Below are positions 2,159 through 15,373 of a DNA stretch of 64,000 nucleotides, in pieces (the stretch's first letter is position 1; each line of letters opens with the position of its first letter). The stretch lies in sequence record PZ452582.1; one strand, 5' to 3'. Position numbers and translations under genes: made by a program. The notes under the pieces are model-generated. The model did no database searches, had not been told where the DNA came from, and worked only from the letters and a program-made list of their open reading frames with translations. The stretch is from a phage.

Positions 2159-4855
2159 ATGAAAGAATTTTATATCTCTATTGAAACAGTCGGAAATAAC
2201 ATTGTTGAACGTTATATTGATGAAAACGGAAAGGAACGTACTCGTGAAGTAGAATATCTTCCGACTATGTTTAGGCATTGTAAGGAAGAGTCAAAATACA
2301 AAGACATCTATGGTAAAAACTGCGCTCCTCAAAAATTTCCATCAATGAAAGATGCTCGAGATTGGATGAAGCGAATGGAAGACATCGGTCTCGAAGCTCT
2401 CGGTATGAACGATTTTAAACTCGCTTATATCAGTGATACATATGGTTCAGAAATTGTTTATGACCGAAAATTTGTTCGTGTAGCTAACTGTGACATTGAG
2501 GTTACTGGTGATAAATTTCCTGACCCAATGAAAGCTGAATATGAAATTGATGCTATCACTCATTACGATTCAATTGATGATCGTTTTTATGTTTTCGACC
2601 TTTTGAATTCAATGTATGGTTCAGTATCAAAATGGGATGCAAAGTTAGCTGCTAAGCTTGACTGTGAAGGTGGTGATGAAGTTCCTCAAGAAATTCTTGA
2701 CCGAGTAATTTATATGCCATTCGATAACGAGCGTGATATGCTCATGGAATATATCAATCTCTGGGAACAGAAACGACCTGCTATTTTTACTGGTTGGAAT
2801 ATTGAGGGATTTGACGTTCCGTATATCATGAATCGCGTTAAAATGGTTCTCGGTGAACGTAGTATGAAACGCTTCTCTCCAATCGGTCGAGTAAAATCTA
2901 AACTAATTCAAAATATGTACGGTAGCAAAGAAATTTATTCTATTGATGGCGTATCTATTCTTGATTATTTAGATTTGTACAAGAAATTCGCTTTTACTAA
3001 TTTGCCGTCATTCTCTTTGGAATCAGTTGCTCAACATGAAACCAAAAAAGGTAAATTACCATATGATGGCCCTATTAATAAACTTCGTGAGACTAATCAT
3101 CAACGATACATTAGTTATAACATCATTGACGTAGAATCAGTTCAAGCAATTGATAAAATTCGCGGGTTTATCGATCTAGTTTTAAGTATGTCTTATTATG
3201 CTAAAATGCCTTTTTCTGGTGTAATGAGTCCTATTAAAACTTGGGATGCTATTATTTTTAACTCATTGAAAGGTGAACATAAGGTTATTCCTCAACAAGG
3301 TTCGCATGTTAAACAGAGTTTTCCGGGTGCATTTGTGTTTGAACCTAAACCAATTGCTCGTCGATATATTATGAGTTTTGACTTGACGTCTCTGTATCCG
3401 AGCATTATTCGTCAGGTTAACATTAGTCCTGAGACTATTCGTGGTCAGTTTAAAGTTCATCCAATTCATGAATATATCGCAGGAACAGCTCCTAAACCAA
3501 GTGATGAATATTCTTGTTCTCCGAATGGATGGATGTATGATAAGCATCAAGAAGGTATCATTCCAAAGGAAATCGCTAAAGTATTTTTCCAGCGTAAAGA
3601 TTGGAAAAAGAAAATGTTCGCTGAAGAAATGAATGCCGAAGCTATTAAAAAGATTATTATGAAAGGCGCAGGGTCTTGTTCAACTAAACCTGAAGTTGAA
3701 CGATATGTTAAGTTCAGTGATGATTTCTTAAATGAATTATCGAATTACACTGAATCTGTTCTTAATAGTCTGATCGAAGAATGTGAAAAAGCAGCTACAC
3801 TTGCTAACACAAATCAGCTGAACCGTAAAATTCTTATTAACAGTCTTTATGGTGCTCTTGGTAATATTCATTTCCGTTACTATGATTTGCGAAATGCTAC
3901 TGCTATCACAATTTTCGGCCAAGTTGGTATTCAGTGGATTGCTCGTAAAATTAATGAATATCTGAATAAAGTATGCGGAACTAATGGCGAAGATTTCATT
4001 GCAGCAGGTGATACTGATTCGGTATATGTTTGTGTAGATAAAGTTATTGAAAAAGTTGGTCTTGACCGATTCAAAGAGCAGAACGATTTAGTTGAATTCA
4101 TGAATCAGTTCGGTAAGAAAAAAATGGAACCGATGATTGATGTTGCATATCGTGAGTTATGTGATTATATGAATAACCGCGAGCATCTGATGCATATGGA
4201 CCGTGAAGCTATTTCTTGCCCTCCGCTTGGTTCAAAGGGTGTCGGTGGATTTTGGAAAGCGAAAAAGCGTTATGCTCTGAACGTTTATGATATGGAAGAT
4301 AAGCGATTTGCTGAACCGCATCTAAAAATCATGGGTATGGAAACTCAGCAAAGTTCAACGCCTAAAGCGGTTCAAGAAGCTCTCGAAGAAAGTATTCGTC
4401 GTATTCTTCAGGAAGGTGAAGAGTCTGTCCAAGAATATTACAAAAACTTCGAGAAAGAATATCGTCAACTTGACTATAAAGTTATTGCTGAAGTAAAAAC
4501 TGCGAACGATATAGCGAAATATGATGATAAAGGTTGGCCAGGATTTAAATGCCCGTTCCATATTCGTGGGGTGCTAACTTATCGTCGAGCTGTTAGCGGT
4601 TTAGGTGTAGCTCCAATTTTGGATGGAAATAAAGTAATGGTTCTTCCATTGCGTGAAGGAAATCCATTTGGTGACAAGTGCATTGCTTGGCCGTCGGGTA
4701 CAGAACTTCCAAAAGAAATTCGTTCTGACGTACTGTCTTGGATTGACTACTCAACTTTGTTCCAAAAATCGTTTGTTAAACCGCTTGCAGGCATGTGTGA
4801 ATCGGCTGGTATGGACTATGAAGAAAAAGCTTCGTTAGACTTCCTGTTTGGCTGA
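2159..4855 (+). CDS. 43: DNA polymerase gp43 (family B)
   Basis: 898 aa, same as T4 gp43; exonuclease and polymerase motifs (DTDS, YGDTDS-like GDTDSVY) visible; synteny. Confidence 0.95.
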   Translation: MKEFYISIETVGNNIVERYIDENGKERTREVEYLPTMFRHCKEESKYKDIYGKNCAPQKFPSMKDARDWMKRMEDIGLEALGMNDFKLAYISDTYGSEIVYDRKFVRVANCDIEVTGDKFPDPMKAEYEIDAITHYDSIDDRFYVFDLLNSMYGSVSKWDAKLAAKLDCEGGDEVPQEILDRVIYMPFDNERDMLMEYINLWEQKRPAIFTGWNIEGFDVPYIMNRVKMVLGERSMKRFSPIGRVKSKLIQNMYGSKEIYSIDGVSILDYLDLYKKFAFTNLPSFSLESVAQHETKKGKLPYDGPINKLRETNHQRYISYNIIDVESVQAIDKIRGFIDLVLSMSYYAKMPFSGVMSPIKTWDAIIFNSLKGEHKVIPQQGSHVKQSFPGAFVFEPKPIARRYIMSFDLTSLYPSIIRQVNISPETIRGQFKVHPIHEYIAGTAPKPSDEYSCSPNGWMYDKHQEGIIPKEIAKVFFQRKDWKKKMFAEEMNAEAIKKIIMKGAGSCSTKPEVERYVKFSDDFLNELSNYTESVLNSLIEECEKAATLANTNQLNRKILINSLYGALGNIHFRYYDLRNATAITIFGQVGIQWIARKINEYLNKVCGTNGEDFIAAGDTDSVYVCVDKVIEKVGLDRFKEQNDLVEFMNQFGKKKMEPMIDVAYRELCDYMNNREHLMHMDREAISCPPLGSKGVGGFWKAKKRYALNVYDMEDKRFAEPHLKIMGMETQQSSTPKAVQEALEESIRRILQEGEESVQEYYKNFEKEYRQLDYKVIAEVKTANDIAKYDDKGWPGFKCPFHIRGVLTYRRAVSGLGVAPILDGNKVMVLPLREGNPFGDKCIAWPSGTELPKEIRSDVLSWIDYSTLFQKSFVKPLAGMCESAGMDYEEKASLDFLFG

Positions 4856-5001: not shown

Positions 5002-5038
5002 ACAACTATCAACTACTGATACAGATTTGGAGAATAAA

Positions 5039-5275
5039 ATGAAAATTGTTATGGGATGCTTAGCAGTTTGTTTAGTTGCATTAGCAGCAGTTCCATTTGT
5101 TAGTGTTGAAAATGATACTCAACCTGCGATTGAATCTAGCACCGTTATTCACACTAATGGTAAAATATCAGTTAAAATTGATGATAATCTTCATGTGAAT
5201 ACAAATGGATCTTTAGGTGTGCAAATGGGTAATACCTGCATAAGCACTACTGGAGTAATTACTACTTGCATTTGA
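5039..5275 (+). CDS. Small secreted protein (signal peptide), function unknown
   Basis: GGAGA RBS 5 nt upstream of ATG; N-terminal hydrophobic signal MKIVMGCLAVCLVALAAVPF. Confidence 0.55.
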   Translation: MKIVMGCLAVCLVALAAVPFVSVENDTQPAIESSTVIHTNGKISVKIDDNLHVNTNGSLGVQMGNTCISTTGVITTCI

Positions 5276-5673: not shown

Positions 5674-5988
5674 ATGGAAACTTTAGTAGCAGGTTCAATT
5701 TTTATGGTTTTAGTTTCAGGTGTGTTGGCTATTATTATATACATGCTTCCATGGTTTATTGCTTTGATGCGTGGGTCAAAATCGACAGTAGGAATCTTTT
5801 TCACATCTTTACTGTTTAACTGGTCAATTATTGGTTGGTTTATTACATTTATTTGGTCAATTGCGGGTGAAACTAAAAAGTCTGCACAACCAAATCAGGT
5901 AATTATCATCAGAGAGAGAAGGAATGAAAAGCAAAATTATAGCAGTGTTGCTTTTAATCTTGATGATTATAATAAGTATATACTATAG
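5674..5988 (+). CDS. imm: Imm-like superinfection immunity membrane protein
   Basis: Two predicted TM helices; sits between 43 and 42 where T4 imm lies; 104 aa, whereas T4 Imm is recalled as 83 aa, so the end is uncertain. Confidence 0.55.
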   Translation: METLVAGSIFMVLVSGVLAIIIYMLPWFIALMRGSKSTVGIFFTSLLFNWSIIGWFITFIWSIAGETKKSAQPNQVIIIRERRNEKQNYSSVAFNLDDYNKYIL

Positions 5989-6073
5989 TGTAACGGTTCC
6001 TCTTATGATTCCGACTATTATTTTAGGTTGGAGCTTATTACTGTTACAAGTTAAATATGAATGTATCAATTGA
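5924..6073 (+). CDS. Small hydrophobic membrane protein (49 aa), out-of-frame overlap with imm-like ORF
   Basis: ATG preceded by GAGAAGGA; strongly hydrophobic MKSKIIAVLLLILMIIIS; below the 60-aa track cutoff. Confidence 0.35.
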   Translation: MKSKIIAVLLLILMIIISIYYSVTVPLMIPTIILGWSLLLLQVKYECIN

Positions 6074-6080
6074 GGTTTAA

Positions 6081-6821
6081 ATGATTAGTGACTCTATGAC
6101 AGTTGAAGAAATCCGTCTTCATTTGGGGCTTGCATTAAAAGAAAAAGATTTCGTAGTTGATAAAACCGGTGTTAAAACTATTGAAATTATTGGCGCATCA
6201 TTTGTAGCAGATGAACCGTTTATTTTTGGTGCTCTTAATGATGAATACATTCAGCGTGAACTTGAATGGTATAAATCTAAGAGCTTGTTCGTTAAAGATA
6301 TTCCAGGTGAAACACCGAAGATTTGGCAACAAGTAGCATCTTCTAAAGGCGAAATTAACTCGAACTATGGTTGGGCTATTTGGTCAGAAGATAACTATGC
6401 CCAGTATGATATGTGTTTAGCTGAACTTGGTCAAAATCCTGATTCTCGACGTGGTATCATGATTTATACTCGTCCATCCATGCAATTTGACTACAATAAA
6501 GATGGTATGTCAGATTTCATGTGTACTAATACAGTACAGTACCTGATTCGTGATAAGAAAGTCAATGCAGTAGTAAGCATGCGCTCAAATGACGTGGTCT
6601 TCGGATTCCGTAATGATTATGCATGGCAAAAATACGTATTAGATAAATTAGTATCTGATTTGAATGCCGGCGATTCATCTCGTCAGTATAAAGCAGGTTC
6701 TATTATATGGAATGTCGGAAGTCTTCATGTATATTCTCGTCATTTTTACTTGGTTGATCATTGGTGGAATACTGGCGAAACTCATATTGTGAAAAAAGAC
6801 TATAAAGGTGAGTGGAAATGA
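6081..6821 (+). CDS. 42: dCMP hydroxymethylase gp42
   Basis: 246 aa, same as T4 gp42; thymidylate-synthase-like fold sequence recognised. Confidence 0.92.
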   Translation: MISDSMTVEEIRLHLGLALKEKDFVVDKTGVKTIEIIGASFVADEPFIFGALNDEYIQRELEWYKSKSLFVKDIPGETPKIWQQVASSKGEINSNYGWAIWSEDNYAQYDMCLAELGQNPDSRRGIMIYTRPSMQFDYNKDGMSDFMCTNTVQYLIRDKKVNAVVSMRSNDVVFGFRNDYAWQKYVLDKLVSDLNAGDSSRQYKAGSIIWNVGSLHVYSRHFYLVDHWWNTGETHIVKKDYKGEWK

Positions 6822-7660
6822 TTCAATTCGTAATTCCAAGTTATCAGCGTGTCAGGGCAGTTTCTGCCCTTGATATGTTTCCGACTGATTATGAACCGCA
6901 TATTGTAGTGCGTGAACATGAAGAAAAAGCTTATCATGACGCTTATGGGTCTAGAGCTAAAATTATAACTATTCCTGATGATGTAAACGGAATTGCCGGT
7001 ACTCGTAAAGCAATTACCGATATATATGCAGGTCAACGAATCTGGATGATTGACGATGATACTACTATTCGTATGAGTTCAATGCGAAAAAGAGATGATC
7101 GTCGTTGCGTAGATAAAGTCAATCAATTGACTCGTGAACAGTTCTATGAATTGATTCAATATGTTGAGGATGCCATGGATTGCGGGTATTATCATGGCCA
7201 TGCTCGTCTACCTATTTTTAAAATTACTTCATCTTGGGGTAATTATCGTGAAAATTCATATGGATTCACGAATACATGGTATGACCTCGGAAAACTTACG
7301 ACAGAACAAATTGGGTATGGAAAAATTGATTTATGCGAAGATATGTATGCATTTCTCAATTTAATTAATCAAGGTTATCCGCATTTGGCCTTGTTCAAAT
7401 ATCTAGTTGTATCTGGAAAAGCACAAGCTCCTGGCGGGTGCAGTTCAATTCGTAGTAATTCTAAACATAATAGAGCGCTTGAGCAGATTAATAGAGAGTT
7501 TCCAGAGCAAGCTCGTTGGAAAACTTCTAATATTGAAAAACGAAAATCGTTGGGTGAAGAAGACGAACCATTAAAGGTTCTTCGCATGTGCGTTTCACGT
7601 AAAGAAAAATCAGAAGCATTTCATAAGTTTAATGCTATTCATCCAATAGCAGTTGATTAA
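6818..7660 (+). CDS. Putative DNA-modifying glycosyltransferase at the beta-gt locus (GT-A-like, DxD)
   Basis: ATGA overlap with gene 42 stop; WMIDDDTT motif; does not resemble remembered T4 beta-gt (351 aa); could be a T2/T6-type beta-alpha glucosyltransferase. Confidence 0.5.
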   Translation: MIQFVIPSYQRVRAVSALDMFPTDYEPHIVVREHEEKAYHDAYGSRAKIITIPDDVNGIAGTRKAITDIYAGQRIWMIDDDTTIRMSSMRKRDDRRCVDKVNQLTREQFYELIQYVEDAMDCGYYHGHARLPIFKITSSWGNYRENSYGFTNTWYDLGKLTTEQIGYGKIDLCEDMYAFLNLINQGYPHLALFKYLVVSGKAQAPGGCSSIRSNSKHNRALEQINREFPEQARWKTSNIEKRKSLGEEDEPLKVLRMCVSRKEKSEAFHKFNAIHPIAVD

Positions 7661-7737
7661 TGCCTAAATTTATTGTGTTATAATTACTCTATCTTTAACC
7701 AGTGAGGAAAATATAATGATGCCTATGGAAAAAATGA

Positions 7738-8919
7738 ATGTCTATTGCAGATTTAAAATCCCGTTTGATTAAAGCTTCCACTTCTAAAATGACTGCTGAA
7801 CTGACTACATCTAAATTCTTTAATGAAAAGGATGTAATTCGTACAAAAATTCCAATGCTTAATATTGCTATTTCTGGTGCGATTGATGGCGGCATGCAGT
7901 CTGGTTTAACTATTTTCGCAGGGCCTTCTAAACACTTTAAATCAAATATGTCTTTGACTATGGTTGCGGCATATTTGAACAAATATCCTGACGCGGTTTG
8001 TCTATTCTATGATAGTGAATTTGGTATTACTCCAGCTTATTTGCGATCCATGGGAGTTGACCCGGAACGAGTAATTCATACGCCGATTCAGTCAGTTGAA
8101 CAGCTGAAAATTGATATGGTGAACCAGCTTGAAGCTATTGAGCGTGGTGAAAAGGTTATTGTATTCATCGACTCAATTGGTAATATGGCTTCTAAGAAAG
8201 AAACGGAAGATGCCTTGAATGAAAAATCTGTGGCAGATATGACTCGTGCTAAATCACTGAAGTCATTATTCCGTATTGTTACTCCTTACTTTAGCATTAA
8301 AAATATTCCATGTGTTGCGGTTAACCATACAATTGAAACAATTGAAATGTTTAGTAAAACCGTGATGACAGGTGGTACAGGCGTAATGTATTCGGCTGAT
8401 ACTGTATTCATTATCGGTAAGCGTCAGATTAAAGATGGTTCTGATCTTCAGGGGTATCAATTTGTTCTAAATGTAGAAAAATCTCGTACCGTTAAAGAAA
8501 AAAGTAAATTCTTTATTGATGTTAAATTTGACGGTGGTATCGATCCTTATTCTGGATTGTTAGATATGGCTCTAGAATTAGGATTTGTAGTAAAACCTAA
8601 AAATGGTTGGTATGCTCGTGAATTTCTTGACGAAGAAACCGGCGAGATGATTCGCGAAGAAAAATCTTGGCGTGCAAAAGATACTAACTGCACTACATTC
8701 TGGGGTCCTTTATTTAAGCATCAACCATTCCGAGATGCTATTAAGCGTGCTTATCAGTTAGGTGCTATTGATAGTAATGAAATTGTTGAAGCGGAAGTTG
8801 ATGAATTAATTAACTCAAAGGTTGAAAAATTTAAATCCTCAGAAAGTAAAAGTAAATCAGCAGCTGATTTAGAAACTGACCTCGAGCAGTTAAGTGATAT
8901 GGAAGAATTTAATGAATAA
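7738..8919 (+). CDS. uvsX: UvsX recombinase (RecA/Rad51 family)
   Basis: 393 aa; Walker A GPSKHFKS; near-identical to remembered T4 UvsX. Confidence 0.93.
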   Translation: MSIADLKSRLIKASTSKMTAELTTSKFFNEKDVIRTKIPMLNIAISGAIDGGMQSGLTIFAGPSKHFKSNMSLTMVAAYLNKYPDAVCLFYDSEFGITPAYLRSMGVDPERVIHTPIQSVEQLKIDMVNQLEAIERGEKVIVFIDSIGNMASKKETEDALNEKSVADMTRAKSLKSLFRIVTPYFSIKNIPCVAVNHTIETIEMFSKTVMTGGTGVMYSADTVFIIGKRQIKDGSDLQGYQFVLNVEKSRTVKEKSKFFIDVKFDGGIDPYSGLLDMALELGFVVKPKNGWYAREFLDEETGEMIREEKSWRAKDTNCTTFWGPLFKHQPFRDAIKRAYQLGAIDSNEIVEAEVDELINSKVEKFKSSESKSKSAADLETDLEQLSDMEEFNE

Positions 8920-11253: not shown

Positions 11254-11547
11254 ATGAAAAAATTTATCTTTGCTGCAATTTTTGCTTTAGCTTCTTGTGC
11301 TGCTCAGCCTGCTATGGCAGGTTATGATAAAGATTTGTGTGAATGGTCTATGACTGCGGATCAGACTGAAGTTGAAACTCAAATTGAAGCGGATATTATG
11401 AATATCGTTGAGCGCGATCGTCCTGAAATGAAAGCTGAAGTGCAAAAACAGCTTAAGTCTGGTGGTGTAATGCAGTATAATTATGTTCTGTATTGCGATA
11501 AAAACTTTAATAACAAAAATATCGTAACCGAAATCACAGGTGAATAA
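11254..11547 (+). CDS. sp: Spackle (Sp) periplasmic protein, inhibitor of gp5 lysozyme
   Basis: 97 aa with cleavable signal peptide; matches T4 Sp length and position. Confidence 0.75.
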   Translation: MKKFIFAAIFALASCAAQPAMAGYDKDLCEWSMTADQTEVETQIEADIMNIVERDRPEMKAEVQKQLKSGGVMQYNYVLYCDKNFNNKNIVTEITGE

Positions 11548-11548
11548 T

Positions 11549-12181
11549 ATGATTTATTATATGCACAAAAATCCACCGTTTAAATACGGTAAATTTCCTG
11601 ATGCACAATGTTATAATATAACGCCTGATGAAAATAACCGTGGATATCTTATTGGCACAATTTTTGTAATTGTTAAAGATAACGAAATCGTTGCCTGGGC
11701 AGATTTTAAAGGTACAACACATGATGTTAATCCGGTGCCTTTCACATATTACAATATAATGGATTTGGCATATGATTATAATTGGTTTAATCATGACACG
11801 TTGGCTCATATTGAAGGTGTAGGATTTGACATCTCTTATTCTAGCTACTCATTGTGTCCTATGAGTCGGGCTCATAAAGAACCTGAATATTTTTCATTTA
11901 GGAAACGTGTAAACTTTAAACGCAACACAGAGTATGTCGGTGGAATATTTGTTAAAGATAATCGAATTATTCGTATTAATTATCCTTTGAGCGTTAGTCA
12001 AAAAGATATTGATGTTGATTTAGATTTCACTGAAAATAATATTAATCATATTGCTTCTGTGTATTTTGGTATCGATCACAAAATTGTAATATGTGGATAT
12101 GAATTACCGTTTGAAGAACAGCCTAAAGTAAATGTTTCTATTGATGACCAAATTTTTAATGCTTTTATGAATAAAGGTTAA
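11549..12181 (+). CDS. Hypothetical protein (T4 61.2 position)
   Basis: 210 aa from ATG 11549; C-terminus SIDDQIFNAFMNKG is shared with the next ORF. Confidence 0.55.
   Translation: MIYYMHKNPPFKYGKFPDAQCYNITPDENNRGYLIGTIFVIVKDNEIVAWADFKGTTHDVNPVPFTYYNIMDLAYDYNWFNHDTLAHIEGVGFDISYSSYSLCPMSRAHKEPEYFSFRKRVNFKRNTEYVGGIFVKDNRIIRINYPLSVSQKDIDVDLDFTENNINHIASVYFGIDHKIVICGYELPFEEQPKVNVSIDDQIFNAFMNKG

Positions 12182-14033: not shown

Positions 14034-15373
<1,340 letters not shown>

Follow-up and report, generated by a model that had tools for sequence, protein, structure and literature searches.

Between gene 42 and uvsX, T4 carries the gene for its beta-glucosyltransferase (b-gt). In the phage DNA considered here, a stretch of 64,000 nucleotides from record PZ452582.1 (the window), a gene of 280 codons occupies this position, and the locus raises the question of which enzyme it encodes and which sugar that enzyme would place on the DNA. 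The matter is of some consequence, as the sugar attached to hydroxymethylcytosine (hmC) determines which defences of the host a T-even phage evades and which it sets off. The window is a segment of a T4-like (Tequatrovirus) genome, in which the genes are ordered 44', 62, regA, 43 (2159-4855), a small ORF, imm.1, imm, 42, ggt, uvsX (7738-8919), 40 and 41. The features needed for the argument are as follows.

6081..6821, plus strand: gene 42, dCMP hydroxymethylase, 246 aa (Pfam PF00303, thymidylate synthase, E = 1.2e-15)
6804..7749, no strand assigned: segment without DNA homology to T4 (blastn comparison with the T4 locus)
6805..6821, plus strand: end of gene 42 and start of ggt: Shine-Dalgarno-like AAGGTGAG (6805-6812), ggt ATG (6818-6820), gene 42 TGA (6819-6821)
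6818..7660, plus strand: ggt (ba-gt, TAGT), beta-glucosyl-HMC-alpha-glucosyltransferase, intact, 280 aa (T2/T6 identity, PF20691, PHROG 842, GT-A model)
7052..7060, plus strand: D79-D80-D81 codons, DXD-type motif, conserved without exception in 10 homologues (lowest identity 29%)
7337..7342, plus strand: E174-D175 codons, candidate catalytic base (alignment conservation, GT2 analogy)

The ggt frame is open throughout, from the ATG at 6818 to the stop codon at 7658-7660, and contains the sequence WMIDDDTT, as an earlier note on this DNA had described. That it is coding is beyond doubt, because it is matched by PHROG 842, by PF20691 and by 475 phage records. In a mechanical list of ORFs the frame was begun at a GTG at 6812, giving 282 aa. 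This start was rejected, as it lies inside gene 42 and homologues give it no support. The possibility of a pseudogene was also rejected, since the frame is open from the ATG and the conserved residues are all present.

The start codon of ggt and the stop codon of gene 42 overlap as ATGA, and the Shine-Dalgarno-like element lies 5 nt 5' of the ggt ATG. T2 and RB51 are annotated with an identical 4-nt overlap, and it was called in two further loci (L012 and L013), whose proteins have 76% and 65% amino acid identity. The conserved overlap suggests that translation of ggt is coupled to that of gene 42, and co-translation of ggt with dCMP hydroxymethylase is probable. The earlier note had stated this coupling outright; the overlap stands, and coupling itself is suggested by it. 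When positions 5900-7900 were scanned for sigma-70 promoters, 14 consensus matches were found against 8.7 ± 3.3 in shuffled sequences, which is not a meaningful excess, and none of those 5' of ggt was outstanding. This is consistent with co-transcription of ggt and gene 42.

Between ggt and uvsX, the stretch 7659-7684 holds a TGCCTAA (7661-7667) located 11 nt upstream of a TATAAT (7679-7684), and it is identical in T2 and T6. By eye, this pair resembles a T4 MotA-dependent middle promoter, which would here serve uvsX. The element at 7661-7684 was not listed by the sigma-70 scan.

The ggt protein and the annotated ggt of T2 are 98% identical over 280 aa; the figure is the same for T6 MH550421, over 261 aligned aa, and for the versions in T6 AP018814 and T2 AP018813. 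At the DNA level the gene is 99.9% identical to its counterparts in RB51, RB68 and Ac3, and 475 phage-collection records contain it at a nucleotide identity of at least 90% over its full length, many of them naming it beta-glucosyl-HMC-alpha-glucosyltransferase, glucosyl transferase or ggt. The profile search that had been proposed as a check points to the T2/T6-type enzyme. PHROG 842 (beta-glucosyl-HMC-alpha-glucosyltransferase) is matched with E = 1e-87, and the Pfam family PF20691 (TET-associated glycosyltransferase, TAGT) with 42.6 bits (cut-off 27.5), the match spanning residues 3-207 of the protein and positions 2-205 of the 205 in the profile. No NCBIfam model matches the protein. A search of protein databases returned 11 clusters only, all belonging to the TAGT family where domains are recorded, with identities falling to 48% (Serratia phage PS2) and 29% (one metagenomic protein), and an IMG/VR scan gave only five loci, all 97-99% identical and too little diverse for covariation tests.

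The gene after 42 is thus that of the T2/T6-type beta-glucosyl-HMC-alpha-glucosyltransferase, whose product would by homology be gentiobiosyl-hmC, a reading to which we assign a probability of about 0.93. The T2/T6 enzyme is glucosyl-DNA beta-glucosyltransferase, EC 2.4.1.28. A gentiobiosyl pattern had been offered in the earlier note as one example of how the sugars might differ from those of T4; at 98% identity to T2/T6 ggt it is the best-supported reading.

A search of PDB sequences with the ggt protein gave chance matches only (E > 1) and no solved relative. An AlphaFold2 model was built from a 10-sequence alignment (mean pLDDT 74.4, pTM 0.76); it is confident over residues 1-120 and poor at 125-138 and 204-211. 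In this model the protein folds as GT-A, the fold of nucleotide-diphospho-sugar transferases, strand 4 is followed by an acidic DXD-type motif, and the closest structures are transferases of the GT2 family. An AF3 model has previously led to the TAGT family (PF20691) being described as GT-A and sister to GT2 (PMC13216743). The WMIDDDTT sequence corresponds to residues 76-83 (nt 7043-7066), and D79-D81 directly follow the model strand 74-77, in a block with a pLDDT of ~89. The motif had been called GT-A-like from its letters, a judgement that both the model and the invariance of these residues uphold. By analogy with the enzymology of other GT-A proteins, D79-D81 are expected to bind the metal ion and the diphosphate of the UDP-sugar. 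Further along, D175 never varies and E174 hardly varies in one alignment (A3), and in another (A4) both are invariant; on the GT2 analogy, E174-D175 are candidates for the catalytic base of an inverting GT-A enzyme. GT2-family enzymes are inverting, as would be expected for a beta linkage formed from UDP-alpha-glucose.

Homology also suggests the chemistry. The gene 42 product would supply hmC, which would be glycosylated afterwards. The alpha-glucosyltransferase (a-gt) of the phage would first make alpha-glucosyl-hmC in the DNA, and ggt would transfer a further glucose onto it from host UDP-glucose through a beta-1,6 linkage, giving gentiobiosyl-hmC. In T2 and T6, which have no b-gt, a-gt glucosylates hmC and ba-gt (g-gt) then adds the beta-1,6 glucose (PMC6024577; bioRxiv 10.64898/2026.02.25.707755), and the beta-glucosyl-HMC-alpha-glucosyltransferases of these phages are credited with the synthesis of gentiobiosyl-hmC (PMC6024577, PMC13216743). 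Following deletion of g-gt, T6 DNA behaves as ~75% alpha-glucosyl-hmC (bioRxiv 10.64898/2026.02.25.707755). Virion DNA of the present phage would be expected to contain free hmC, alpha-glucosyl-hmC and gentiobiosyl-hmC, with no beta-glucosyl-hmC. When the window was searched by tblastn, RB51 a-gt had no counterpart in it (best E = 7.3), and neither had T4 b-gt. T2, T6 and RB51 have their a-gt ~13 kb past gene 43, in the interval from gene 47 to gene 55 and upstream of the point at which the window starts, and from these relatives we infer that a-gt lies elsewhere in the genome.

The 5' part of the ggt coding sequence is predicted to form an mRNA hairpin (6826-6895), with a core stem-loop at 6854-6870 (GGGCAG-UUU-CUGCCC). 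The hairpin lies 35 nt into the coding region, with the in-frame codon for Met20 in its 3' arm. For the segment 6795-6895 the minimum free energy is -30.7 kcal/mol (z = -4.07), and none of 200 shuffled sequences folds as well. The core stem is kept in seven of eight homologous loci, with changes confined to the loop bases at 76% and 65% amino acid identity, and two of the stem pairs link synonymous third-codon positions. Such a structure could influence the translation of ggt or the stability of its mRNA.

Gentiobiosyl-hmC accounts for ~5% in T2 and ~72% in T6, with ~25% of hmC remaining naked (PMC6024577; bioRxiv 10.64898/2026.02.25.707755). Ten wild Tequatrovirus phages possessing a-gt and TAGT were found by HPLC/MS to contain hmdC, alpha-glc-mdC and gentiobiosyl-mdC, and no beta-glc-mdC, in proportions (in that order) of ~1:2:2 or of ~1/3 : trace : 2/3 (PMC13390438). 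The ratio of mono- to di-glucosylated residues is unpredictable, because phages with near-identical enzymes range from ~5% to ~72% gentiobiosyl.

It is conceivable, though unlikely, that ggt is poorly active or poorly expressed in this phage, and that the DNA resembles that of T2 in being mostly mono-alpha-glucosylated with a few percent of gentiobiosyl residues. The T2 gene is intact and 98% identical, yet T2 has only ~5% gentiobiosyl-hmC (PMC6024577), and a stable hairpin lies within the first 80 nt of the ggt mRNA. The window also carries M69I, a change that none of the 16 others shows in a comparison of 17 sequences. M69I is conservative, however, and the hairpin is present in T6 too, while wild Tequatrovirus phages with ggt reach ~40% to two-thirds gentiobiosyl by HPLC/MS (PMC13390438). 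Two other positions also argue against a T2-like enzyme. Both T2 records (L003 and L011) have H11 and S251, whereas R11 is found in all 15 other homologues and P251 in 14 of the 15, and the window has R11 and P251 like T6.

It may be, as a hypothesis, that H11 and S251 are related to the low (~5%) gentiobiosyl content of T2; R11 and P251 in the window would then be a hint, but no more, of an allele of the more active kind. A bolder and rather doubtful proposal is that the long-known gap between T2 and T6 arises from R11H (next to the PSYQ strand-1 motif), from P251S and/or from gating of coupled translation by the hairpin, in which case the window allele would be T6-like. Were this true, the combination of R11, P251 and an intact hairpin would predict a highly di-glucosylated genome like that of T6.

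Each of the two public T6 genome records has a lesion of its own in ggt. In MH550421 (L002, 4924-4980), codon 10 is TAG, where the window has CAG, and the CDS is annotated from Met20 with 261 aa. In AP018814 (L005, 4135-4974), one Asp codon of the DDD is missing (WMIDDTT), within a GATGATGAT run. Such lesions could impair the enzyme, which would be odd for a phage taken to be ~72% gentiobiosylated; laboratory stocks may differ.

A further alternative retains the TAGT family and changes the specificity, such that the acceptor would be hmC itself or beta-glucosyl-hmC, or the donor a different nucleotide sugar. Functions within the TAGT family are heterogeneous, and homologues of 48-65% identity adjoin a b-gt homologue rather than a-gt. 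TAGT homologues have been found paired with either glucosyltransferase or alone, and whether there are two kinds of TAGT has been asked (PMC13216743). At 98% identity to the T2/T6 proteins, with every invariant residue kept, a change in specificity is nevertheless very unlikely, and the close relatives T2, T6 and RB51 all have a-gt; the probability of this alternative is accordingly put at very little.

Descent of ggt from b-gt as a drifted orthologue, which its place between gene 42 and uvsX might suggest, can be dismissed with near certainty, given that BLASTP against T4 b-gt (351 aa, NC_000866) yields chance fragments of 8-35 residues (best E = 2.3), that the T4 b-gt family PF09198 has no match in the protein at E up to 1, that the model is GT-A and lacks the two Rossmann domains of the GT-B fold found in T4 b-gt (PMC13216743), and that distant T4-like phages have both genes side by side, as separate genes. 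The earlier note was right, then, that the protein does not match T4 b-gt, to which it has no full-length alignment, and right also about the length and fold of the T4 enzyme.

The window is ~96% identical to T4 by blastn from imm.1 into gene 42, up to position 6803, which leaves the last 18 nt of gene 42 outside the match. Homology resumes at 7750, just inside uvsX. Between these flanks there are 946 bp in the window as against 1941 bp in T4, which has b-gt and the homing endonuclease gene segA. T2 and T6 DNA, by comparison, is continuous with the window across 6804-7749 (~97%).

The locus had been presented as a notable departure from T4. It is instead the standard, long-known arrangement of T2 and T6, the ggt allele occurring in 475 phage-collection records and the T4 b-gt allele in 29, which are mostly T4 stocks together with RB55 and RB59. 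It is T4 that is the outlier, and in T4-like coliphages (T2 and T6, and the majority of RB phages and of wild Tequatrovirus) this place is normally taken by ggt. The pairing of an alpha-GT with a beta-GT has been described as nearly unique to T4 (PMC13216743). The order 42, ggt, uvsX is shared by T2, T6 and RB51.

More distant T4-like phages carry both genes. A TAGT gene and a b-gt homologue (PF09198) stand in tandem before uvsX in two of the loci compared (L013, 3001-4904; L015, 3001-4949). In one of them, a contig with a TAGT of 65% identity, gene 42 is followed by TAGT (with a 4-nt overlap), the PF09198 b-gt homologue and uvsX; the other, Serratia phage PS2 (TAGT 48% identical), has this arrangement too, with an extra ORF between 42 and TAGT. 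TAGT and b-gt are separate genes rather than diverged alleles of one. Plausibly, T4, with b-gt only, and the T2 type, with TAGT only, represent alternative reductions of such a two-gene cassette.

Some other genes in the window deserve mention. An ORF of 186 aa (14034-14594, plus strand) ends at the start of dam (14594-15373; PF02086, E = 6.5e-51). It has weak, sub-threshold matches to the DpnII (E = 0.004) and BanI restriction endonuclease families and is present in 181 phage records, being hypothetical in those listed. A 'restriction enzyme-like gene' and a Dam-like gene have been reported in the Tequatrovirus subgroup with the 1:2:2 modification ratio (PMC13390438). An ORF of 213 aa (11540-12181, plus strand) matches Pfam AdfA (anti-DarT factor A, gp61.2), a known counter-defence gene, over its full length (E = 6.8e-138). 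Between gene 43 and imm.1, an ORF of 82 aa (5027-5275, plus strand) has a predicted signal or membrane-like N-terminus and no Pfam match; it corresponds by position to RB51ORF048, which T2 also has in its annotation and which T4 and T6 lack.

The ggt gene, its position, fold class and product, its synteny with T4 b-gt and the LC-MS of its relatives have already been described, and there is no new biology in the locus. Distinguishing the second transferase of the T2/T6 type from T4 b-gt is useful for annotation and for the prediction of host range. Brig1 is reported to act on alpha-glucosyl-hmC, and Brig3 on naked hmC, its partner BapA being unable to strip gentiobiose. GmrSD and BrxU are reported to cleave several of the modified forms.

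Among known systems, T2/T6 ggt is the closest in kind. The window protein has the same 280 aa, the same position between 42 and uvsX, identical DDD and ED motifs and, as in T2, the ATGA overlap with gene 42. It differs from T2 ggt by five substitutions (R11H, R13G, H40Y, I69M and P251S, window residue first). From the RB32ORF041c-type protein of RB51, RB68 and Ac3 it differs at residue 69 only, and the flanking genes are as in RB51. The rest of the window is mosaic, its first 25 kb being matched at ~97% at best by any collection record. With the TAGT family as a whole (PF20691) it shares the whole-profile match and the predicted GT-A fold, but other members occur with TET/5mYOX systems, beside b-gt or alone, and possibly transfer other sugars; the window protein belongs to the T-even TAGT subgroup, partnered with a-gt. 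The GT-A enzymes of the GT2 family, such as BcsA, TarP, RmlT and PcManGT, are only 6-16% identical in sequence, and unlike them ggt has no membrane or extra domains and would have as acceptor a sugar on DNA. T4 b-gt (PF09198), finally, shares with ggt the locus, the glucosylation of hmC-DNA from UDP-glucose and the beta linkage, but it is a GT-B protein of 351 aa and unrelated sequence, whose acceptor is naked hmC rather than the alpha-glucosyl-hmC of ggt (PMC13216743).
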